A stretch of DNA of 64,000 nt from Candidatus Taylorbacteria bacterium RIFCSPLOWO2_12_FULL_43_20 (GCA_001821295.1 MHSK01000017.1:31-64030); one strand, 5' to 3'; shown: positions 1-7,267, numbered from the stretch's first letter. A program made the numbers and translations. Notes: generated by a model not told the origin, from the letters alone.

Positions 1-1
1 T

Positions 2-334
2 TCAGGAGGAGACCCTCGCATTTCAATAACAGGAGGAACAGCCGGCTCAACGGCAAACGACGGTTTTGCTTTAATAAAGGCAAGCAATAACAATGCCTTT
101 CTGTGGAATTATGAGCTCAGAAACATCATTTTTGGCATTGGACCCAATCCCGCTGCTGATGAAAAAATGAGAATTACTACGACAGGAGTGGGCATAGGAA
201 CAGCCGCGCCTGAAACGAAGCTGGAGGTGGTGGGCGGCCCAATCAAGGCAACCGGAGGACTTATTATTGAGACCAGGAATGACGACCCGGATTCGCCGGA
301 AACGGGAAGAATGTGGTTGAGGACGGATATATAA
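2..334 (+). CDS. C-terminal fragment of a Gly/Thr-rich hypothetical protein (5' end outside window)
   Basis: Frame 2 is open from the window edge to TAA at 332-334 and is missed by the track because it has no Met. Translation reads ...GGTAGSTANDGFALIKASNNNAFLWNYELRNIIFGIGPNPAADEKMRITTTGVGIGTAAPETKLEVVGGPIKATGGLIIETRNDDPDSPETGRMWLRTDI*. Confidence 0.35.
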   Translation, partial: SGGDPRISITGGTAGSTANDGFALIKASNNNAFLWNYELRNIIFGIGPNPAADEKMRITTTGVGIGTAAPETKLEVVGGPIKATGGLIIETRNDDPDSPETGRMWLRTDI

Positions 335-339
335 ATTAT

Positions 340-1359
340 ATGATGATTAAAAAGACTTTTCTACATATCTTTGCTCCGCTGAGTGTTTTAGAACAATTAA
401 AATATCCGAGGATTTGGACCTTGTTTTTTATTTTAATCATAGGGATATTGATTCCGTCTTCTTCTCTTAAGGCGGAGGAAGCAACTGCTGACATTTACCC
501 ATATTATAAGGTGGATGGACCGGTTTTATTTGATTCAACATCTGCCGTAACTATTTTATGGACTTCAACACAGGTTTCGTCCTGTATTGTAACGAGAAAT
601 ACTGATAATAACCGGTGGACAGGAACTTCAGGTTCTTTATATTATCTTGGTGAGGTGTTGGGCAGTATTACTCCTCGTGTTACCTATACACTAACGTGTA
701 CAACTTTAACTGGTGACACCATACGCGATAGTGCTACAGCAATCCCGGTAAAACAATCTTTTCCCGTTCTTGACGTAAAAGCGTTTCAAAGTGGTGTCGA
801 AAAAGAAGTATTATCCTGGAATAGAGTGCCTGATGCTATAGGTTATAGCGTATATAGAAATGATTATCAAGATAATACTGATGCTTATAGCACCGACCGT
901 AATTGGGAATTGAATGGAACGGTACCTCAACCACCTGAAAGCGACGACAGAGTTCGTTTTGAAGATTCCCTGGTTCCTTATGAATATGTTGATTATAGAA
1001 TTCATCCTATTTACAATGATGGAGAATTGCTTGACGTGAGGAATTCAAAATGTTGCATTTACATAAGCAGAGCAACATCCTTCCCTATAGACATCGGCCT
1101 TAGAGTAAATGAAGGGACACCGGCCAGTCCGAGAGTGGTGGTTATTGCCGCATATCCGGAAGGCGATAGTTCATATGGTGCTCGCACATCGCCCGTTCGC
1201 GTAGCTAAAGACGGCAAGATCTACACTTTGGTAGTGGCGAAACTGGATCACCCGTTAGCGTCTAATGTTTTTATCAAACTGGATGATGGTTCCGTAAAGG
1301 CATTGATGAGGTTAGGTGAACCTGACTTCCGATTTGCAGCACCACCCACTTTTCAATGA
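340..1359 (+). CDS. hypothetical secreted/membrane-anchored protein with conserved C-terminal DGKIY...KLDDGSVKAL module
   Basis: The track ORF is 313..1359 with a GTG start; the first ATG is at 340 (MMIKKTF...). It has an N-terminal hydrophobic segment LFFILIIGILIPSSSL. The C-terminus ...KDGKIYTLVVAKLDHPLASNVFIKLDDGSVKALMRLGEPDF is shared with the out-of-frame module at 3757-3868. Confidence 0.55.
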   Translation: MMIKKTFLHIFAPLSVLEQLKYPRIWTLFFILIIGILIPSSSLKAEEATADIYPYYKVDGPVLFDSTSAVTILWTSTQVSSCIVTRNTDNNRWTGTSGSLYYLGEVLGSITPRVTYTLTCTTLTGDTIRDSATAIPVKQSFPVLDVKAFQSGVEKEVLSWNRVPDAIGYSVYRNDYQDNTDAYSTDRNWELNGTVPQPPESDDRVRFEDSLVPYEYVDYRIHPIYNDGELLDVRNSKCCIYISRATSFPIDIGLRVNEGTPASPRVVVIAAYPEGDSSYGARTSPVRVAKDGKIYTLVVAKLDHPLASNVFIKLDDGSVKALMRLGEPDFRFAAPPTFQ

Positions 1360-1419
1360 CAGATGTGAAAGAATATGGGTATTTTAAGTGGACAAAAGGG
1401 GTGTGCGGAAGTCAGGAAA

Positions 1420-1461
1420 CTGGGTGATGGTTCCGTAAAGGCATTGATGAGGTTAGGTGAA
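1420..1461 (+). repeat. 42-bp direct duplicate of the 3' coding end of the upstream gene (copy of 1279..1320, 1 mismatch)
   Basis: ctgggtgatggttccgtaaaggcattgatgaggttaggtgaa matches ctggatgatggttccgtaaaggcattgatgaggttaggtgaa at 1279-1320. Confidence 0.8.
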
Positions 1462-1571
1462 GCAAGATGAAGTTATCCTCCATAGAATAGTATTTGCATA
1501 CCTAGCACGCACTCAGTCTTTGCTGTTAGGGATACTTGCTATTTTAGGTATATATATTGTATACTATACCT

Positions 1572-2696
1572 ATGAATTACGATAGAACAATATACAATAC
1601 CTTATTAAAAAATATAGGCAAAAAGCCCATCATAATACTTTATGGGGCAAGACAGGTTGGGAAAACAACCCTTATCAAGACAATATTAAGAATTTTTACC
1701 AAAACTCTCTATTTACAAGGAGATGATCCCAAAGATGCTCTACTCCTCCAACATAGGTCTGCGGATGAGCTTTCCGAATTAGTGTCAGGATATGATCTCG
1801 TTGTCATTGACGAAGCTCAGAGAATAGAGGACATAGGAATTTCACTCAAACTGATCGCTGATAATGTCGAAAACGCCAAAGTTATCGCTTCGGGTTCTTC
1901 CTCCTTCGAATTGGCAAACAAGCTGAATGAGCCTCTGACGGGCAGAAACCGAAAGTTCTATCTTTATCCGTTATCAATAGGAGAATTAGTTTTGGCTCAT
2001 GGGAAAATAAATATACAAAAAGAACTTGAAACCTACATGACTTTCGGCATGTACCCGAAAATAGTCTCCGCGGAATCAAGAGAAGAAAAAGCGCTTCTGG
2101 TGAAAGAACTGGCGGGCGATTATTTATTCAAGGATTTATTTATGTTCGGGGATATAAGAAACTTCTTTGCTTTTGAAAAACTCATAAAGCTTCTGGCTCT
2201 TTGTATCGGAAATGAGATTTCTTATTCAGAATTGGCAAAAGAGGTCGGTATAAGCAGAAGTACGGTGTTAAATTATGTAAATTTGCTTGAACAGGCCTTC
2301 ATAATATTTAGGATGACTCCTCTTTACACAAACAAAACTAAGGAAATCAATAAAAGCCACAAAATCTATTTTTTTGACCTGGGTATCAGAAACGCAATTA
2401 TCAATAATACCGATCCTATGGAACTTCGTCTGGATAAAGGCGCAATTTTTGAAAATTTCTTTATCGCAGAAAAGATAAAACAGCGAGAATATTCCGGAAG
2501 AACGAGCGAAATTCATTTTTGGAAAAGCAGAAACGGAGCTGAAGTGGATTTTGTGGAAGTTTCGAGTGGACAAGTCGAAGCATTTGAATGTAAATGGAAA
2601 GAAAAGGTCAACGCGCCAAAGGCCTGGTCGGAAACATACCCAACATCAGTTTTTAAGTCCGTGAACACAGAGAACGTTATTGACTACACTTCTTAG
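1572..2696 (+). CDS. AAA+ ATPase of the COG1373/DUF4143 type
   Basis: Walker A motif GARQVGKTTL, a DEAQ-like Walker B (VVIDEAQ), and a C-terminal region typical of DUF4143-containing ATPases. The track ORF starts at TTG 1557; the first ATG is at 1572. Confidence 0.6.
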   Translation: MNYDRTIYNTLLKNIGKKPIIILYGARQVGKTTLIKTILRIFTKTLYLQGDDPKDALLLQHRSADELSELVSGYDLVVIDEAQRIEDIGISLKLIADNVENAKVIASGSSSFELANKLNEPLTGRNRKFYLYPLSIGELVLAHGKINIQKELETYMTFGMYPKIVSAESREEKALLVKELAGDYLFKDLFMFGDIRNFFAFEKLIKLLALCIGNEISYSELAKEVGISRSTVLNYVNLLEQAFIIFRMTPLYTNKTKEINKSHKIYFFDLGIRNAIINNTDPMELRLDKGAIFENFFIAEKIKQREYSGRTSEIHFWKSRNGAEVDFVEVSSGQVEAFECKWKEKVNAPKAWSETYPTSVFKSVNTENVIDYTS

Positions 2697-2766
2697 CTGT
2701 GGAATAACAGGGACAGCCATCATTCTTTTGCCTGCGGTTTACTTGGAGTTTTTGCAACCTAATCTT

Positions 2767-3744
2767 ATGAAGAAAATAATATTTAGTTTGGTAATCATTG
2801 GCTTTTGGATTGTTTCTTATGGCGCCGTTAATTTCGCAAATGCTTCTAATATGATTGAAGTTTGTAGACTTAATGGCCAGGTGGTTAAAATCACCGATGA
2901 TTATGTTTTTCTTGAAATAAAAAAAGCGTCATATGATGATCCTTTATCATTGGGTGGAGAATATTTTGAAGAATGTAAGAATATAATGAGAAGTGGAGCT
3001 TTGTATCGTTTTTCCACACGAATAAATGAATCCGGCAATTCGTTCTTTAGAGGGGATTTTCGCAATAGTTCTGTCGGTCAATCTATCGTAATTACAAAAG
3101 ATATTGGGAATGCCATGGGTCCTGAAGGAGAGGTCAACTGGGAACAGTGGGTATTGAGGAGAATCGGAAATGTGGAGGGAATCAGATATATAGAACTTGA
3201 AAAAGATACTGGTTCAGAAATCTCAGCAGAACCGGTTTATACGAATGATCCTTTAGTTAAAAATATTTTAAGTGATTCTCTAGTTGAAAACCGCACATAC
3301 ACCATTGCAAAACTGAACAAAAATACCTCCATAGCCCCGAGAAAGTTTTTCACGGAGGCGTATGTTTCGTATATTTACATATGCCCACCGTGTGGCGGAG
3401 AAGCATTATGTATGCCGTGTCTCGACAATTCCTTTATCATTCTTTCGGAAGACTTTGGTTTTAAATATTCACCGGGAAGTGCTTTAGACAAGGAAATATT
3501 AGTTTACACTAAATCTCTTGATTCTGAAAAGCTTGTGGAAGACCAAAAATATCGTTTTGAAGTTTCAATTCAAAATACTAGCAACACAAATGTTCCCCAA
3601 AACGAATTCACACTGATTTCGGTGAAAAATATTGACGGTAGTGTTGTTGCCCCTGAAACTACAGCTCCGCCAATTACCGATCAACCACCAAAGAAATCTT
3701 TCTTTGGTCGCATCTGGAACTGGTTTGCGAGATTGTTTGAGTAA
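2767..3744 (+). CDS. hypothetical secreted protein (signal peptide MKKIIFSLVIIGFWIVSYGAVNFANA)
   Basis: The track ORF is 2680..3744. An internal Met at 2767 gives a canonical signal peptide and avoids overlap with the preceding gene. It contains a Cys cluster (CPPCGGEALCMPC). No recognised domain. Confidence 0.5.
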   Translation: MKKIIFSLVIIGFWIVSYGAVNFANASNMIEVCRLNGQVVKITDDYVFLEIKKASYDDPLSLGGEYFEECKNIMRSGALYRFSTRINESGNSFFRGDFRNSSVGQSIVITKDIGNAMGPEGEVNWEQWVLRRIGNVEGIRYIELEKDTGSEISAEPVYTNDPLVKNILSDSLVENRTYTIAKLNKNTSIAPRKFFTEAYVSYIYICPPCGGEALCMPCLDNSFIILSEDFGFKYSPGSALDKEILVYTKSLDSEKLVEDQKYRFEVSIQNTSNTNVPQNEFTLISVKNIDGSVVAPETTAPPITDQPPKKSFFGRIWNWFARLFE

Positions 3745-3756
3745 TAGAGGAAGTAC

Positions 3757-3868
3757 AGATGGCAAGATCTACGCTTTGGTGCTGGTAGAGCCGAATGATC
3801 CGAACGCGTCAGACGTCATTCTCAAACTCGGCGATGGGTCGCTCAAGGCGTTGAGGAAGTATCCTTAA
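3757..3868 (+). other. out-of-frame C-terminal module homologous to the C-terminus of the 340..1359 protein (possible +1 frameshift or pseudogenised tail)
   Basis: Frame 2 encodes ...STDGKIYALVLVEPNDPNASDVILKLGDGSLKALRKYP*, aligning with DGKIYTLVVAKLDHPLASNVFIKLDDGSVKAL of ORF 340..1359. Frame 1 of the upstream gene stops at TAA 3742-3744, so joining the two requires a +1 shift. Confidence 0.45.
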
Positions 3869-5031: not shown

Positions 5032-5262
5032 ATGAACACATTTTCCGCGGTATTGCCATATATTCAGATCGCCTTATCAATTCTTCTCATTATTGGAATA
5101 TTACTCCAGCAATCAAGCGCCGGTTTAGGCGGCGCATTCGGTGAGGGCAACAATTTTAGCGGTTTCAACACCAAAAGAGGATTTGAAAGAACTTTATTCA
5201 TTGCAACAATAATATTGGCTGTTCTATTCGGCGCAAGCGCGTTTATCGCACTTATTATTTAA
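5032..5262 (+). CDS. secG: preprotein translocase subunit SecG
   Basis: 76 aa with two TM helices. The motif LLQQSSAGLGGAFGEGNNFSGFNTKRGFERTL matches the SecG signature LLQ..KG.G.G..FG...F..RG.E..L. Confidence 0.7.
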   Translation: MNTFSAVLPYIQIALSILLIIGILLQQSSAGLGGAFGEGNNFSGFNTKRGFERTLFIATIILAVLFGASAFIALII

Positions 5263-5384
5263 ATTATCTAATTAATTTATTCTTCGAAACTTTTGCCGGA
5301 AATACAGGTCAGTTTTTTCAATTGCCCGAGCAAACATGAGTAAGAGCCTATCTCAATCTAACCGTAAAATATGAAGAAAAATCA

Positions 5385-5530
5385 CTACTTGCCTGCCGAA
5401 ATGTCCAAAATTCTGCTGCAAATTGCGTATTTCTCGTCAGCGTACCTCGGTATGCTTCCTCAAAATCCGCAATTTTCGCAAAGAATTTTGAACATTTCAG
5501 TTAGCCATTAGATTGTAGATAGCCTCTAAA
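5385..5530 (+). repeat. conserved ~140-bp intergenic leader repeat (copy 1 of 3)
   Basis: ctgccgaaatgtccaaaattctgctgcaaattgcgtatttctcgtcagcgtacctcggtatgcttcctcaaaatccgcaattttcgcaaagaattttgaacatttc..ccattagat is near-identical to 29140-29265 and partially to 28313-28365, each immediately 5' of a plus-strand gene start. Confidence 0.7.
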
Positions 5531-5536
5531 GCATTT

Positions 5537-7267
5537 ATGGATTTAAACAGAAGGATCTTTGGAACCCGCCGTACCGGCTTTTCCGAGCATATAGTCTCGC
5601 GTTTTTCTCTTACTGAAAGAGTTATTTTTTATATCTGCGCCATAACCATAACCATAAGCTCTATTGTGCTGTTGTGGGGGGTAAATAATAACTTTCTGGT
5701 TCCTGTGCCCGCCAGAGGCGGTACGCTTGTTGAAGGCATTGTAGGATACCCGAGGTTTATAAACCCGATTTTATATTATTCATCAGCCGGTGACGACCTT
5801 GAAAAATTGATCTATTCGGGATTAGTGAAATCCATGCCAGACGGAACGCTGGTACCGGATTTGGCCAAGTCGTACGACATATCAGAGGACGAGCTCACAT
5901 ATACCTTCGTCTTGAAAGACAACGTCAAATTCCACGACGGCGAGCCGGTCACCGCCGAGGATGTTGAATTCACAATCAAAAGAGCGGCTGATCCTGGCAT
6001 AAAAAGCCCAGAACGTGTAAAATGGGAAGGTGTGAATGTTGAGATAGTTGATCCTAAAACGATAAGATTTACCCTGAAAAATCCTTATACTCCTTTTCTT
6101 GAGAACGCAACTCTTGGAATTTTGCCCAAACATATCTGGAAAAACGCCGATATTGAGCAATTTACGTTCAGTAAATTCAACGCCGAGCCCATTGGCACGG
6201 GTCCGTACTTCATTGACATTATCAAAAGAGACGTTGAGGGAATACCCCGGTATTACGAATTGAGATCATTCAAGGACTACGCTCTCGGCGAGCCAATGAT
6301 AGAAAAAATAGTAGTTAAATTTTATCCTACCGAAACAGCTGTGATTGAGGCGTATAATAAGGGCGAAGTTGAGAGCATCAACGCGGTGTCCGGCAAAAAT
6401 GTAGCGGATTTTGCCTCTGTGAATGGAGAGGTCAACAAAACTCCTTTGCCGAGAGTTTTCGGAGTATTCTTCAACCAGAATCAGCAAAAAATTCTTTCAA
6501 ACAAGGAAGTCAGAGAGGCGCTCAGAATGAGCGTAAACAAAAAAGAAATAATTGATACTGTGCTCCACGGTTACGGAACTCGGATTGCCGGTCCTTTGCC
6601 GCCCGGTTTCCCTCTTGTAACAGACGACGATGAGGATCGCGCCGAGGCGGATATTGATGGCGCCAGAGAGCTTCTTTCATCCAACGGGTGGACGCTTGAC
6701 GAGAACGGTTTCTTTGAAAAAAAATCCAAAACAGATTCAACTGCTTTGAAATTTACAATCTCAACATCCGATACTCCGGAACTTTCAGCCACGGCAAACC
6801 TGCTCAAGGAACAGTGGAGAAAGATCGGCGCGGACGTTGATGTAAAAGTGTTTGAATCGGGTGATTTCAACCAATCAGTGCTGAGGCCGAGAAAGTACGA
6901 TGCGCTCCTGTTTGGTGAAATCATAGGACGAGATCTGGATCTTTACGCTTTTTGGCATTCCGGAGAACGCAACGATCCCGGCTTAAACATAGCCATGTAT
7001 GCCAACACATCAGTTGACAAAGCGCTCTCATCAATTCGCTCCACATCTCTTGCCGATGAGAGGGCCGAACAATTATTAATTATTCAAAAAGAAATCAAAG
7101 AGGATATTCCCGCCATATTCATATACTCACCCGACTATATTTACGTTCTCCCTAAAAAAATCAAAAATTTCAAAATGGGAAAACTTATGGGACCATCAGA
7201 GAGATTCGCTTCTGTCAGTGACTGGTATATTAACGAGGATAAAGTCTGGAACATATTCGCAAAATAA
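5537..7267 (+). CDS. ABC transporter substrate-binding protein, family 5 (oligopeptide/nickel type)
   Basis: N-terminal TM anchor. LVPDLAKSYDISEDELTYTFVLKDNVKFHDGEPVTAEDVEFTIKRA is the SBP_bac_5 signature region. 576 aa. Confidence 0.7.
   Translation: MDLNRRIFGTRRTGFSEHIVSRFSLTERVIFYICAITITISSIVLLWGVNNNFLVPVPARGGTLVEGIVGYPRFINPILYYSSAGDDLEKLIYSGLVKSMPDGTLVPDLAKSYDISEDELTYTFVLKDNVKFHDGEPVTAEDVEFTIKRAADPGIKSPERVKWEGVNVEIVDPKTIRFTLKNPYTPFLENATLGILPKHIWKNADIEQFTFSKFNAEPIGTGPYFIDIIKRDVEGIPRYYELRSFKDYALGEPMIEKIVVKFYPTETAVIEAYNKGEVESINAVSGKNVADFASVNGEVNKTPLPRVFGVFFNQNQQKILSNKEVREALRMSVNKKEIIDTVLHGYGTRIAGPLPPGFPLVTDDDEDRAEADIDGARELLSSNGWTLDENGFFEKKSKTDSTALKFTISTSDTPELSATANLLKEQWRKIGADVDVKVFESGDFNQSVLRPRKYDALLFGEIIGRDLDLYAFWHSGERNDPGLNIAMYANTSVDKALSSIRSTSLADERAEQLLIIQKEIKEDIPAIFIYSPDYIYVLPKKIKNFKMGKLMGPSERFASVSDWYINEDKVWNIFAK

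Follow-up and report, generated by a model that had tools for sequence, protein, structure and literature searches.

The 64,000-nt stretch of Candidatus Taylorbacteria bacterium RIFCSPLOWO2_12_FULL_43_20 analysed here (MHSK01000017.1:31-64030, called the window) contains the genes of two secreted proteins, P1 and P2. An earlier note, made from the sequence alone, described both as ending in the same C-terminal module, which in the case of P2 is displaced out of frame beyond the stop codon. The organism is a bacterium of the Candidate Phyla Radiation (CPR) from Rifle aquifer groundwater. How did parts of one gene end come to lie in P1, in a short non-coding copy behind P1 and, once more, behind P2? 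The answer has two parts. The module is a genuine, widespread and uncatalogued domain of ~70 residues, which occurs mostly in secreted proteins. The displaced copies are probably remnants of replaced members of this terminal domain family in a strain-variable island.

The region consists of four co-directional genes, namely the 3′ part of a gene for a fibre-like protein, P1, an ATPase gene and P2, followed by a convergent methyltransferase gene. P0002 denotes the relative of P1 in a sister strain, and slot A the site occupied by P1; both are described below.

1..334, + strand: 3′ part of the gene for a fibre-like secreted protein (200 aa when whole; full gene at 5053..5655 of locus L033)
340..1359, + strand: P1, a secreted protein of 339 aa with a signal peptide or anchor, a beta-rich N-terminal part and the C-terminal module
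1081..1314, + strand: module within P1, IDIGLRVNEGTP...KLDDGSVKAL, three beta-hairpins predicted
1276..1320, + strand: direct repeat, copy 1, coding for KLDDGSVKALMRLGE
1321..1416, + strand: unique 96-nt segment between the repeats (P1 tail, stop codon and 57 nt of spacer)
1417..1470, + strand: remnant A, second copy of the direct repeat, continued to a stop codon and encoding KLGDGSVKALMRLGEAR
1572..2696, + strand: ATPase gene (AAA_14, winged helix-turn-helix and DUF4143 domains), conserved right flank of slot A
2767..3744, + strand: P2, a complete secreted protein of 325 aa, from a separate family with 13 homologues, without the module
3758..3868, + strand: remnant B, 3′ end of a P0002-type module gene (36 codons and the stop codon), not in frame with P2
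4023..4895, − strand: convergent methyltransferase gene, conserved right flank of the locus

P1 is identical to OHA17413.1 (Candidatus Taylorbacteria) and P2 corresponds to OHA23119.1. The same arrangement, base for base where compared, was found in ~20 contigs of independent assemblies (JGI, ENA, Logan, NCBI), without any variation in P1. An error in reads or assembly is excluded because these independent contigs share the identical arrangement. The layout given in the earlier note thus proved correct in most respects: P1 (340..1359) ends in the module, a near-perfect repeat follows it, which is slightly longer than noted (45 nt instead of 42 bp), a COG1373 ATPase gene with AAA_14 and DUF4143 domains lies between the two loci, and a module-like stretch stands behind P2 in frame +1 (3758-3868), although it amounts to half a module only. 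That two unrelated secreted proteins carry the module holds for P1 but not for P2, which is complete without it and has only a 3′ half behind it; this headline is half wrong.

An uncatalogued terminal domain

The stretch DGKIY...KL.DGS.KAL, from which the module had been recognised, forms the last two-thirds of a domain of ~70 residues with the consensus IDIGLRVxDGT..V.IA.EP.GTLTSPLRIAKNG.IYG..LVDP.DP.AS..RI.TSSG.KALRK[YFL]. A profile search of 1.84 billion cluster representatives yielded 173 proteins matching the module at E ≤ 1e-3, which join it to different N-terminal domains. Its position was counted in the 145 matches that reach the end of the model. In 108 of these the protein ends ≤4 residues past the module, and eight, P1 included, have a tail of 5-15 residues. 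In 13 proteins the module stands near the N-terminus, beginning no later than residue 60 and right behind the signal peptide, and in 16 it is internal; it is in these 29 that more than 15 residues follow it. A hydrophobic N-terminal run is present in 114 of the 136 full-length matches. The partner domains are extracellular and very diverse, including NosD/beta-helix, fn3, LamG, GLUG, subtilase, M6 and M10 proteases, Kelch, PQQ, PKD and FG-GAP.

No Pfam family covers the module in P1, in P0002, in eight other members or in a set of 124 members, and no entry of NCBIfam, PHROGs or the PDB sequences does so. P1 as a whole gave no match in Pfam, PHROG or NCBIfam, while its module matches positions 4-74 of a profile built from 51 sequences with E = 4e-23. 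AlphaFold2, supplied with 31 sequences, predicted six strands in three hairpins and no helix, with a mean pLDDT (predicted local distance difference test score) of 81. Most 10-residue blocks of the module reached a pLDDT of 87-91, and the insertion loop ~72. An internal threefold repeat is hinted at by a weak similarity between the hairpins (hhalign E = 0.03-0.2). A phage origin of the module was considered and rejected: tblastn with two divergent members gave no match in 50,697 phage records, and none was found in IMG/VR.

Species genomes of GTDB bearing the module belong to Pirellulales, Sedimentisphaerales, Phycisphaerae, Verrucomicrobiota, Elusimicrobiota, Omnitrophota and Spirochaetaceae; further ones are a Clostridia-labelled metagenome-assembled genome (MAG), Saccharibacteria, Peribacteria and Woese- and Nanoarchaeia. 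In locus L047 the module gene lies among archaeal genes, e.g. those for Spt4 and S27e. Within the 64-kb window a regular-expression scan and a six-frame profile scan revealed no further module copy, and P1 is the sole intact module-bearing gene.

P2, P1 and the probable remnants of module genes

Beyond the TAA of P2 (3742-3744) frame +1 encodes DGKIYALVLVEPNDPNASDVILKLGDGSLKALRKYP and a stop codon at 3758-3868. This remnant B matches only positions 40-74 of the 51-sequence profile (E = 6e-12), and the missing first half is not encoded by any frame ahead of 3758. The frame itself opens at 3632, so that 113 nt are shared with the end of P2. Among the 13 homologues of P2 (33-61% identity) none carries the module. 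Their C-termini consist of a Pro/Thr-rich linker followed by a conserved ...KKSFFGRIWNWFAGLFKR directly before the stop codon, in all but one truncated sequence, and the same conserved terminus, ...SFFGRIWNWFAGLFKR, closes P2 and its homologues. P2 is a complete protein without module, and remnant B is not its frameshifted tail, because the homologues end at a terminus of their own and only profile positions 40-74 are present. The architecture of the P2 family comprises a signal peptide, two beta domains, the Pro/Thr linker and a C-terminal amphipathic helix, which is the conserved KKSFFGRIWNWFAGLFKR segment. Foldseek matched the beta domains to OB folds (RPA, Cdc13, CST), and the predicted helix may represent a different kind of C-terminal anchor.

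The origin of remnant B becomes clearer from a sister strain. The only relative of P1 found by sequence search is P0002 (full form P0191, 492 aa), and the shared part is confined to the last ~75 residues. The N-terminal part of P0002 differs from that of P1, being a repeat protein with weak PQQ-like signals; its C-terminus reads KALRKYP before the stop codon. P0002 is encoded on L003, a metagenome contig of 2.3 kb which is syntenic with the window and carries the fibre-like gene, P0002 and the ATPase gene. The two agree at 201 of 202 positions as far as window position 69, which lies in the fibre-like gene, and at ~70% thereafter; from position 1479 on the identity is 98.3% over 292 nt. Between 69 and 1479 the DNA is different, with identity low or absent. 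The window from ~70 to ~1479 is an allelic, strain-variable island, whose left edge lies inside the fibre-like gene at ~69/70, so that the last two-thirds of this gene are part of the island. The fibre-like protein of 200 aa has GIGTAAP..KLEV motifs and matches phage tail-fibre PHROGs, a match obtained with the L003 allele; it shows no similarity to the neighbour of the module gene in locus L044.

The module of P0002 is a mosaic by nucleotide identity. It agrees with the P1 module at 84% in the 5′ half, and its 3′ half is 91% identical to window positions 3761-3864, that is, to remnant B, while the 3′ half of P1's own module is only ~67% identical to remnant B. Codons 2-36 of remnant B and P0002 differ by 10 synonymous and 0 non-synonymous changes. 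Under neutrality ~24% of random changes in these codons are expected to be synonymous (p ~7e-7). Since the differences are synonymous only, remnant B must still have belonged to a functional gene during this divergence and was orphaned recently.

The gene end of P1 is more complex. P1 closes with ...DGKIYTLVVAKLDHPLASNVFIKLDDGSVKALMRLGEPDFRFAAPPTFQ and the stop codon. The direct repeat (1276-1320 and 1417-1461) is 45 nt long with 44 of 45 positions identical (BLAST E = 7e-17 within 6 kb), and the 96-nt segment between the copies (1321-1416) gives P1 its atypical tail of 13 residues after the module. The ends of this segment form a perfect 11-nt inverted repeat (1321-1331 and 1406-1416), as it opens with CCTGACTTCCG and closes with the exact reverse complement. 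A second copy of the segment is absent from the window and from all fetched loci, and the idea that it is a miniature inverted-repeat transposable element was dropped because a second copy was found nowhere. Neither repeats nor spacer match a known RNA element in Rfam, and with a z-score of 0.09 their folding is not out of the ordinary. Together with the flanking repeats the segment looks like an insertion with a long duplication or like the product of a template switch. Remnant A is too short to be scored against the module profile. Its position corresponds exactly to that of the 3′ end of P0002 in L003, just ahead of the conserved ATPase flank, and at ~1470-1490 traces of homology to the L003 gene end (AAGTATCCATAG) remain.

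An analogous case of a remnant left behind an intact gene was found in Candidatus Peribacteria (locus L024), where the intact module gene ends at 6204 and a remnant of 23 codons (DDPFASGIRIKTPGGVKALLKMN plus stop codon) lies at 6308-6379, ~100 nt behind it. It directly precedes a hairpin and T-run terminator (L024 6204-6480). A Peribacteria paralogue in L026 (3600-3900) is a 72-94% mosaic of the L024 gene. Four short stand-alone module proteins were considered as further orphans, an idea that was not upheld. P0154 (72 aa, L043 3960-4040) is an artefact, since a scaffold gap of 10 N interrupts a gene of ~516 aa, and the other three seem to result from split gene calls or are situated near the end of a contig. 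Short module-only database entries therefore call for caution.

Origin of the displaced gene ends

The remnants are probably due to the exchange or insertion of whole family genes by recombination at slot A (~70-1479) and at a second slot behind the ATPase gene. The incoming segment would supply its own stop codon, and the 3′ end of the previous resident would persist as non-coding DNA. Remnants A (1417-1470) and B (3758-3868) would then be 3′ ends of earlier family members in the two slots, the first derived from a former or duplicated module gene, and P2, although unrelated, would now stand where the gene that left remnant B once stood. The order of these replacement events is inferred. As such the locus would be ordinary gene-turnover debris, recording the turnover of module genes between co-existing strains; what is new is the undescribed, widespread terminal domain. 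Among the three interpretations offered in the earlier note, a cassette-like recombination hotspot is the best, being supported by a different protein in the same slot, near-identical flanks, the mosaic module and the 3′ remnants. It was thought to shuffle C-termini, and this detail does not stand, as it is the gene as a whole or its N-terminal payload that is exchanged rather than the C-terminus. Instability is general in this region, as is shown by population variants that bear a DDE_Tnp_1 insertion sequence (L036, 71-2057; L038, 125-556) and in which the ATPase gene is reduced to its DUF4143 part.

A related situation is known from Rhs/CdiA polymorphic toxins, where an incoming cassette also leaves the earlier end downstream as a promoter-less fragment and alleles are mosaic. 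The polarity is nevertheless reversed in the present locus, the conserved part being C-terminal and the variable payload N-terminal. In addition, the locus has no toxin/immunity pair, and its fragments (15-37 codons) are too short for reuse.

Several observations weigh against replacement of family members as the full explanation. The 44/45 identity of remnant A to P1's own end is not explained by a simple replacement model, which does not account for the 11-nt inverted ends of the 96-nt spacer either. A remnant-B-type end precedes the ATPase gene in L003, yet it follows P2 in the window; the L003 contig stops inside the ATPase gene, and the second slot of the sister strain would lie beyond it. 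As to the domain family itself, Foldseek with the module model found nothing in the PDB and, in BFVD, only uncharacterised proteins of uncultured phages (best E = 2.7e-4, TM-score 0.60). No recurrent partner gene emerged, since among 77 neighbours of 24 loci no family occurs in more than three proteins; the glycoside hydrolases (GH127, GH43, CBM6) among these neighbours come from three related Planctomycete loci.

Window positions 1210-3757, comprising the 3′ half of the P1 module, the spacer, remnant A, the ATPase gene and P2, might instead be one integrative block with a surrogate gene end, which entered an ancestral module gene at the G-K-I-Y codons. As with elements at tRNA genes, the replacement 3′ half would have preserved a complete gene, the native 3′ half (remnant B) would have been displaced downstream, and the ATPase might have supplied the DNA cut through its DUF4143 domain, since DUF4143 (COG1373) has been placed in the PD-(D/E)XK nuclease superfamily (PMC3424549). 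Consistent with this, the P0002 module is collinear with the 5′ half of P1 (84%) and then with remnant B (91%), an identical 12-nt core, GGCAAGATCTAC, is found at both junctions (1213 and 3761), the G+C content is lower in the block than at its edges, and mobility is evident from the insertion sequence that truncates the ATPase gene in L036 and L038. The P1 3′ half and remnant A lie on the left and remnant B on the right, which recalls integrative elements whose attL and attR sites at tRNA or protein genes leave an intact end on one side, a diverged displaced copy on the other and a short identical core. Such an event is nevertheless unlikely. The block holds only the AAA_14-DUF4143 ATPase and P2, and neither in it nor within ~8 kb is there an integrase, transposase or reverse transcriptase; AAA_14 and DUF4143 do not recur beside module genes elsewhere, and the 12-nt core coincides with the best-conserved codons of the module. 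Moreover, the ATPase gene of L003 lies directly behind a remnant-B-type end, an order not expected from one insertion at GKIY and fitting no single event. We regard it as very improbable that remnant B is P2's own tail, detached by a recent frameshift, a sequencing error or programmed +1 frameshifting. The open frame from 3632 with its 113-nt overlap and the lack of non-synonymous changes relative to P0002 would be in line with such a tail, but the P2 homologues stop at the same conserved C-terminal helix, no upstream frame encodes the first half-module, and the synonymous-only pattern is explained by the recent orphaning of a functional allele. The frameshift pseudogenisation of P2 proposed earlier is therefore wrong, and an indel error at 3742 is contradicted by ~20 independent assemblies with the identical sequence. 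CPR genomes often carry diversity-generating retroelements, and the near-identical non-coding copy 96 nt downstream of a coding 3′ end could recall a template/variable pair of such an element or silent cassettes for C-terminal switching. We give next to no credence to this programmed diversification, as the repeat is only 45 nt long with a single difference, a G in the non-coding and an A in the coding copy, which is the opposite of adenine-directed mutagenesis. No reverse-transcriptase-like YxDD open reading frame (ORF) exists in the 64 kb, none was found among the genes called within ~8 kb, and Rfam gave no match. Each of the three copies stops at its own point of the module, and P1 does not vary among the ~20 contigs.

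The module could also be a true C-terminal sorting signal of the type IX kind, recognised and cleaved or attached by a dedicated machine, and a sorting or anchoring tag was indeed the first interpretation offered in the earlier note. The extreme C-terminal position in 108/145 proteins, the conserved last residues (ALRK[YFL], optionally followed by P) and the secreted cargo with very diverse N-terminal domains agree with this, and the module has turned out to be a real terminal domain with diverse secreted partners. It is, however, a folded all-beta domain rather than a peptide signal. It is N-terminal or internal in 29/145 proteins, P1 itself extends 13 residues past it, no conserved neighbouring machinery was found in the 24 loci, and there is no match to sorting-domain models of NCBIfam or Pfam. 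The hosts, CPR bacteria, DPANN archaea, Planctomycetota, Verrucomicrobiota and the Clostridia-labelled MAG, have unrelated envelopes, and monoderm, diderm and archaeal hosts argue against one dedicated machine. We consider a sorting signal in the strict sense quite unlikely. The C-terminal domain of type IX secretion (Por_Secre_tail, TIGR04183) resembles the module in its all-beta fold, its length of ~70-100 residues and its place at the very end of many unrelated secreted proteins. In contrast, the module does not match the TIGR04183 and PF18962 profiles, ~1/5 of its members have it N-terminally or internally, and its three predicted hairpins differ from the 7-strand sandwich of the type IX domain. 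Its hosts (CPR bacteria, DPANN archaea, Planctomycetota, Verrucomicrobiota, Elusimicrobiota and others) are outside the Bacteroidota/FCB group and lack type IX secretion. Tripartite sorting signals (LPXTG, PEP-CTERM, PGF-CTERM) consist of a motif, a hydrophobic helix and a basic tail, whereas the module has six predicted beta-strands, no helix and no NCBIfam match.

Possible role of the module

The module would be a self-folding terminal unit that can be joined to any payload at either end. Its biochemical role can be proposed from this pattern only tentatively, a non-covalent anchoring or binding handle being the likeliest candidate. A handle fits better than a machine-specific sorting signal because payload and end vary freely, the envelopes of the hosts are unrelated and no dedicated partner gene lies nearby. 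As an alternative role, an oligomerisation handle fits the same pattern. A close parallel is given by choline-binding repeats (CW_binding_1) and, in concept, by SLH, LysM and GW domains, which are likewise portable, non-catalytic handles made of short beta-hairpin units at either end of diverse secreted proteins. The module does not match the CW_binding_1 profile (PF01473); it has a constant set of three hairpins in one compact unit, with little similarity between them, and it occurs in archaea too.

A further-reaching idea, which we consider rather improbable, is that the module is a surface-display or attachment domain common to Bacteria and DPANN Archaea whose coding DNA doubles as a recombination handle. 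It would then be a preferred landing site for payload genes, or for whole blocks like P2 with the nuclease-bearing ATPase, that bring along a substitute gene end. If true, this would leave a trail of 3′ remnants and would offer small-genome episymbionts a general way to renew their surface repertoire.

The module, a compact three-hairpin unit predicted with confidence, closes hundreds of otherwise unrelated secreted proteins, among them proteases, lectin-like proteins, beta-helix proteins and propellers, in many uncultivated lineages. Its definition would put a name to a part that recurs in surface proteins listed as 'hypothetical' and provide a testable handle on surface retention or partner binding in CPR bacteria and DPANN archaea. 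In L044 (488-4351) a row of type IV pilin-like genes ends with the gene of a WRIEKR-repeat protein that has a terminal module and was called as two overlapping ORFs (185 and 118 aa); this hints at a link of module proteins to pili in this one lineage. The Clostridia-labelled MAG carries three tandem paralogues of ~210 aa (L006, 909-3032), in which the module stands right after the signal peptide.

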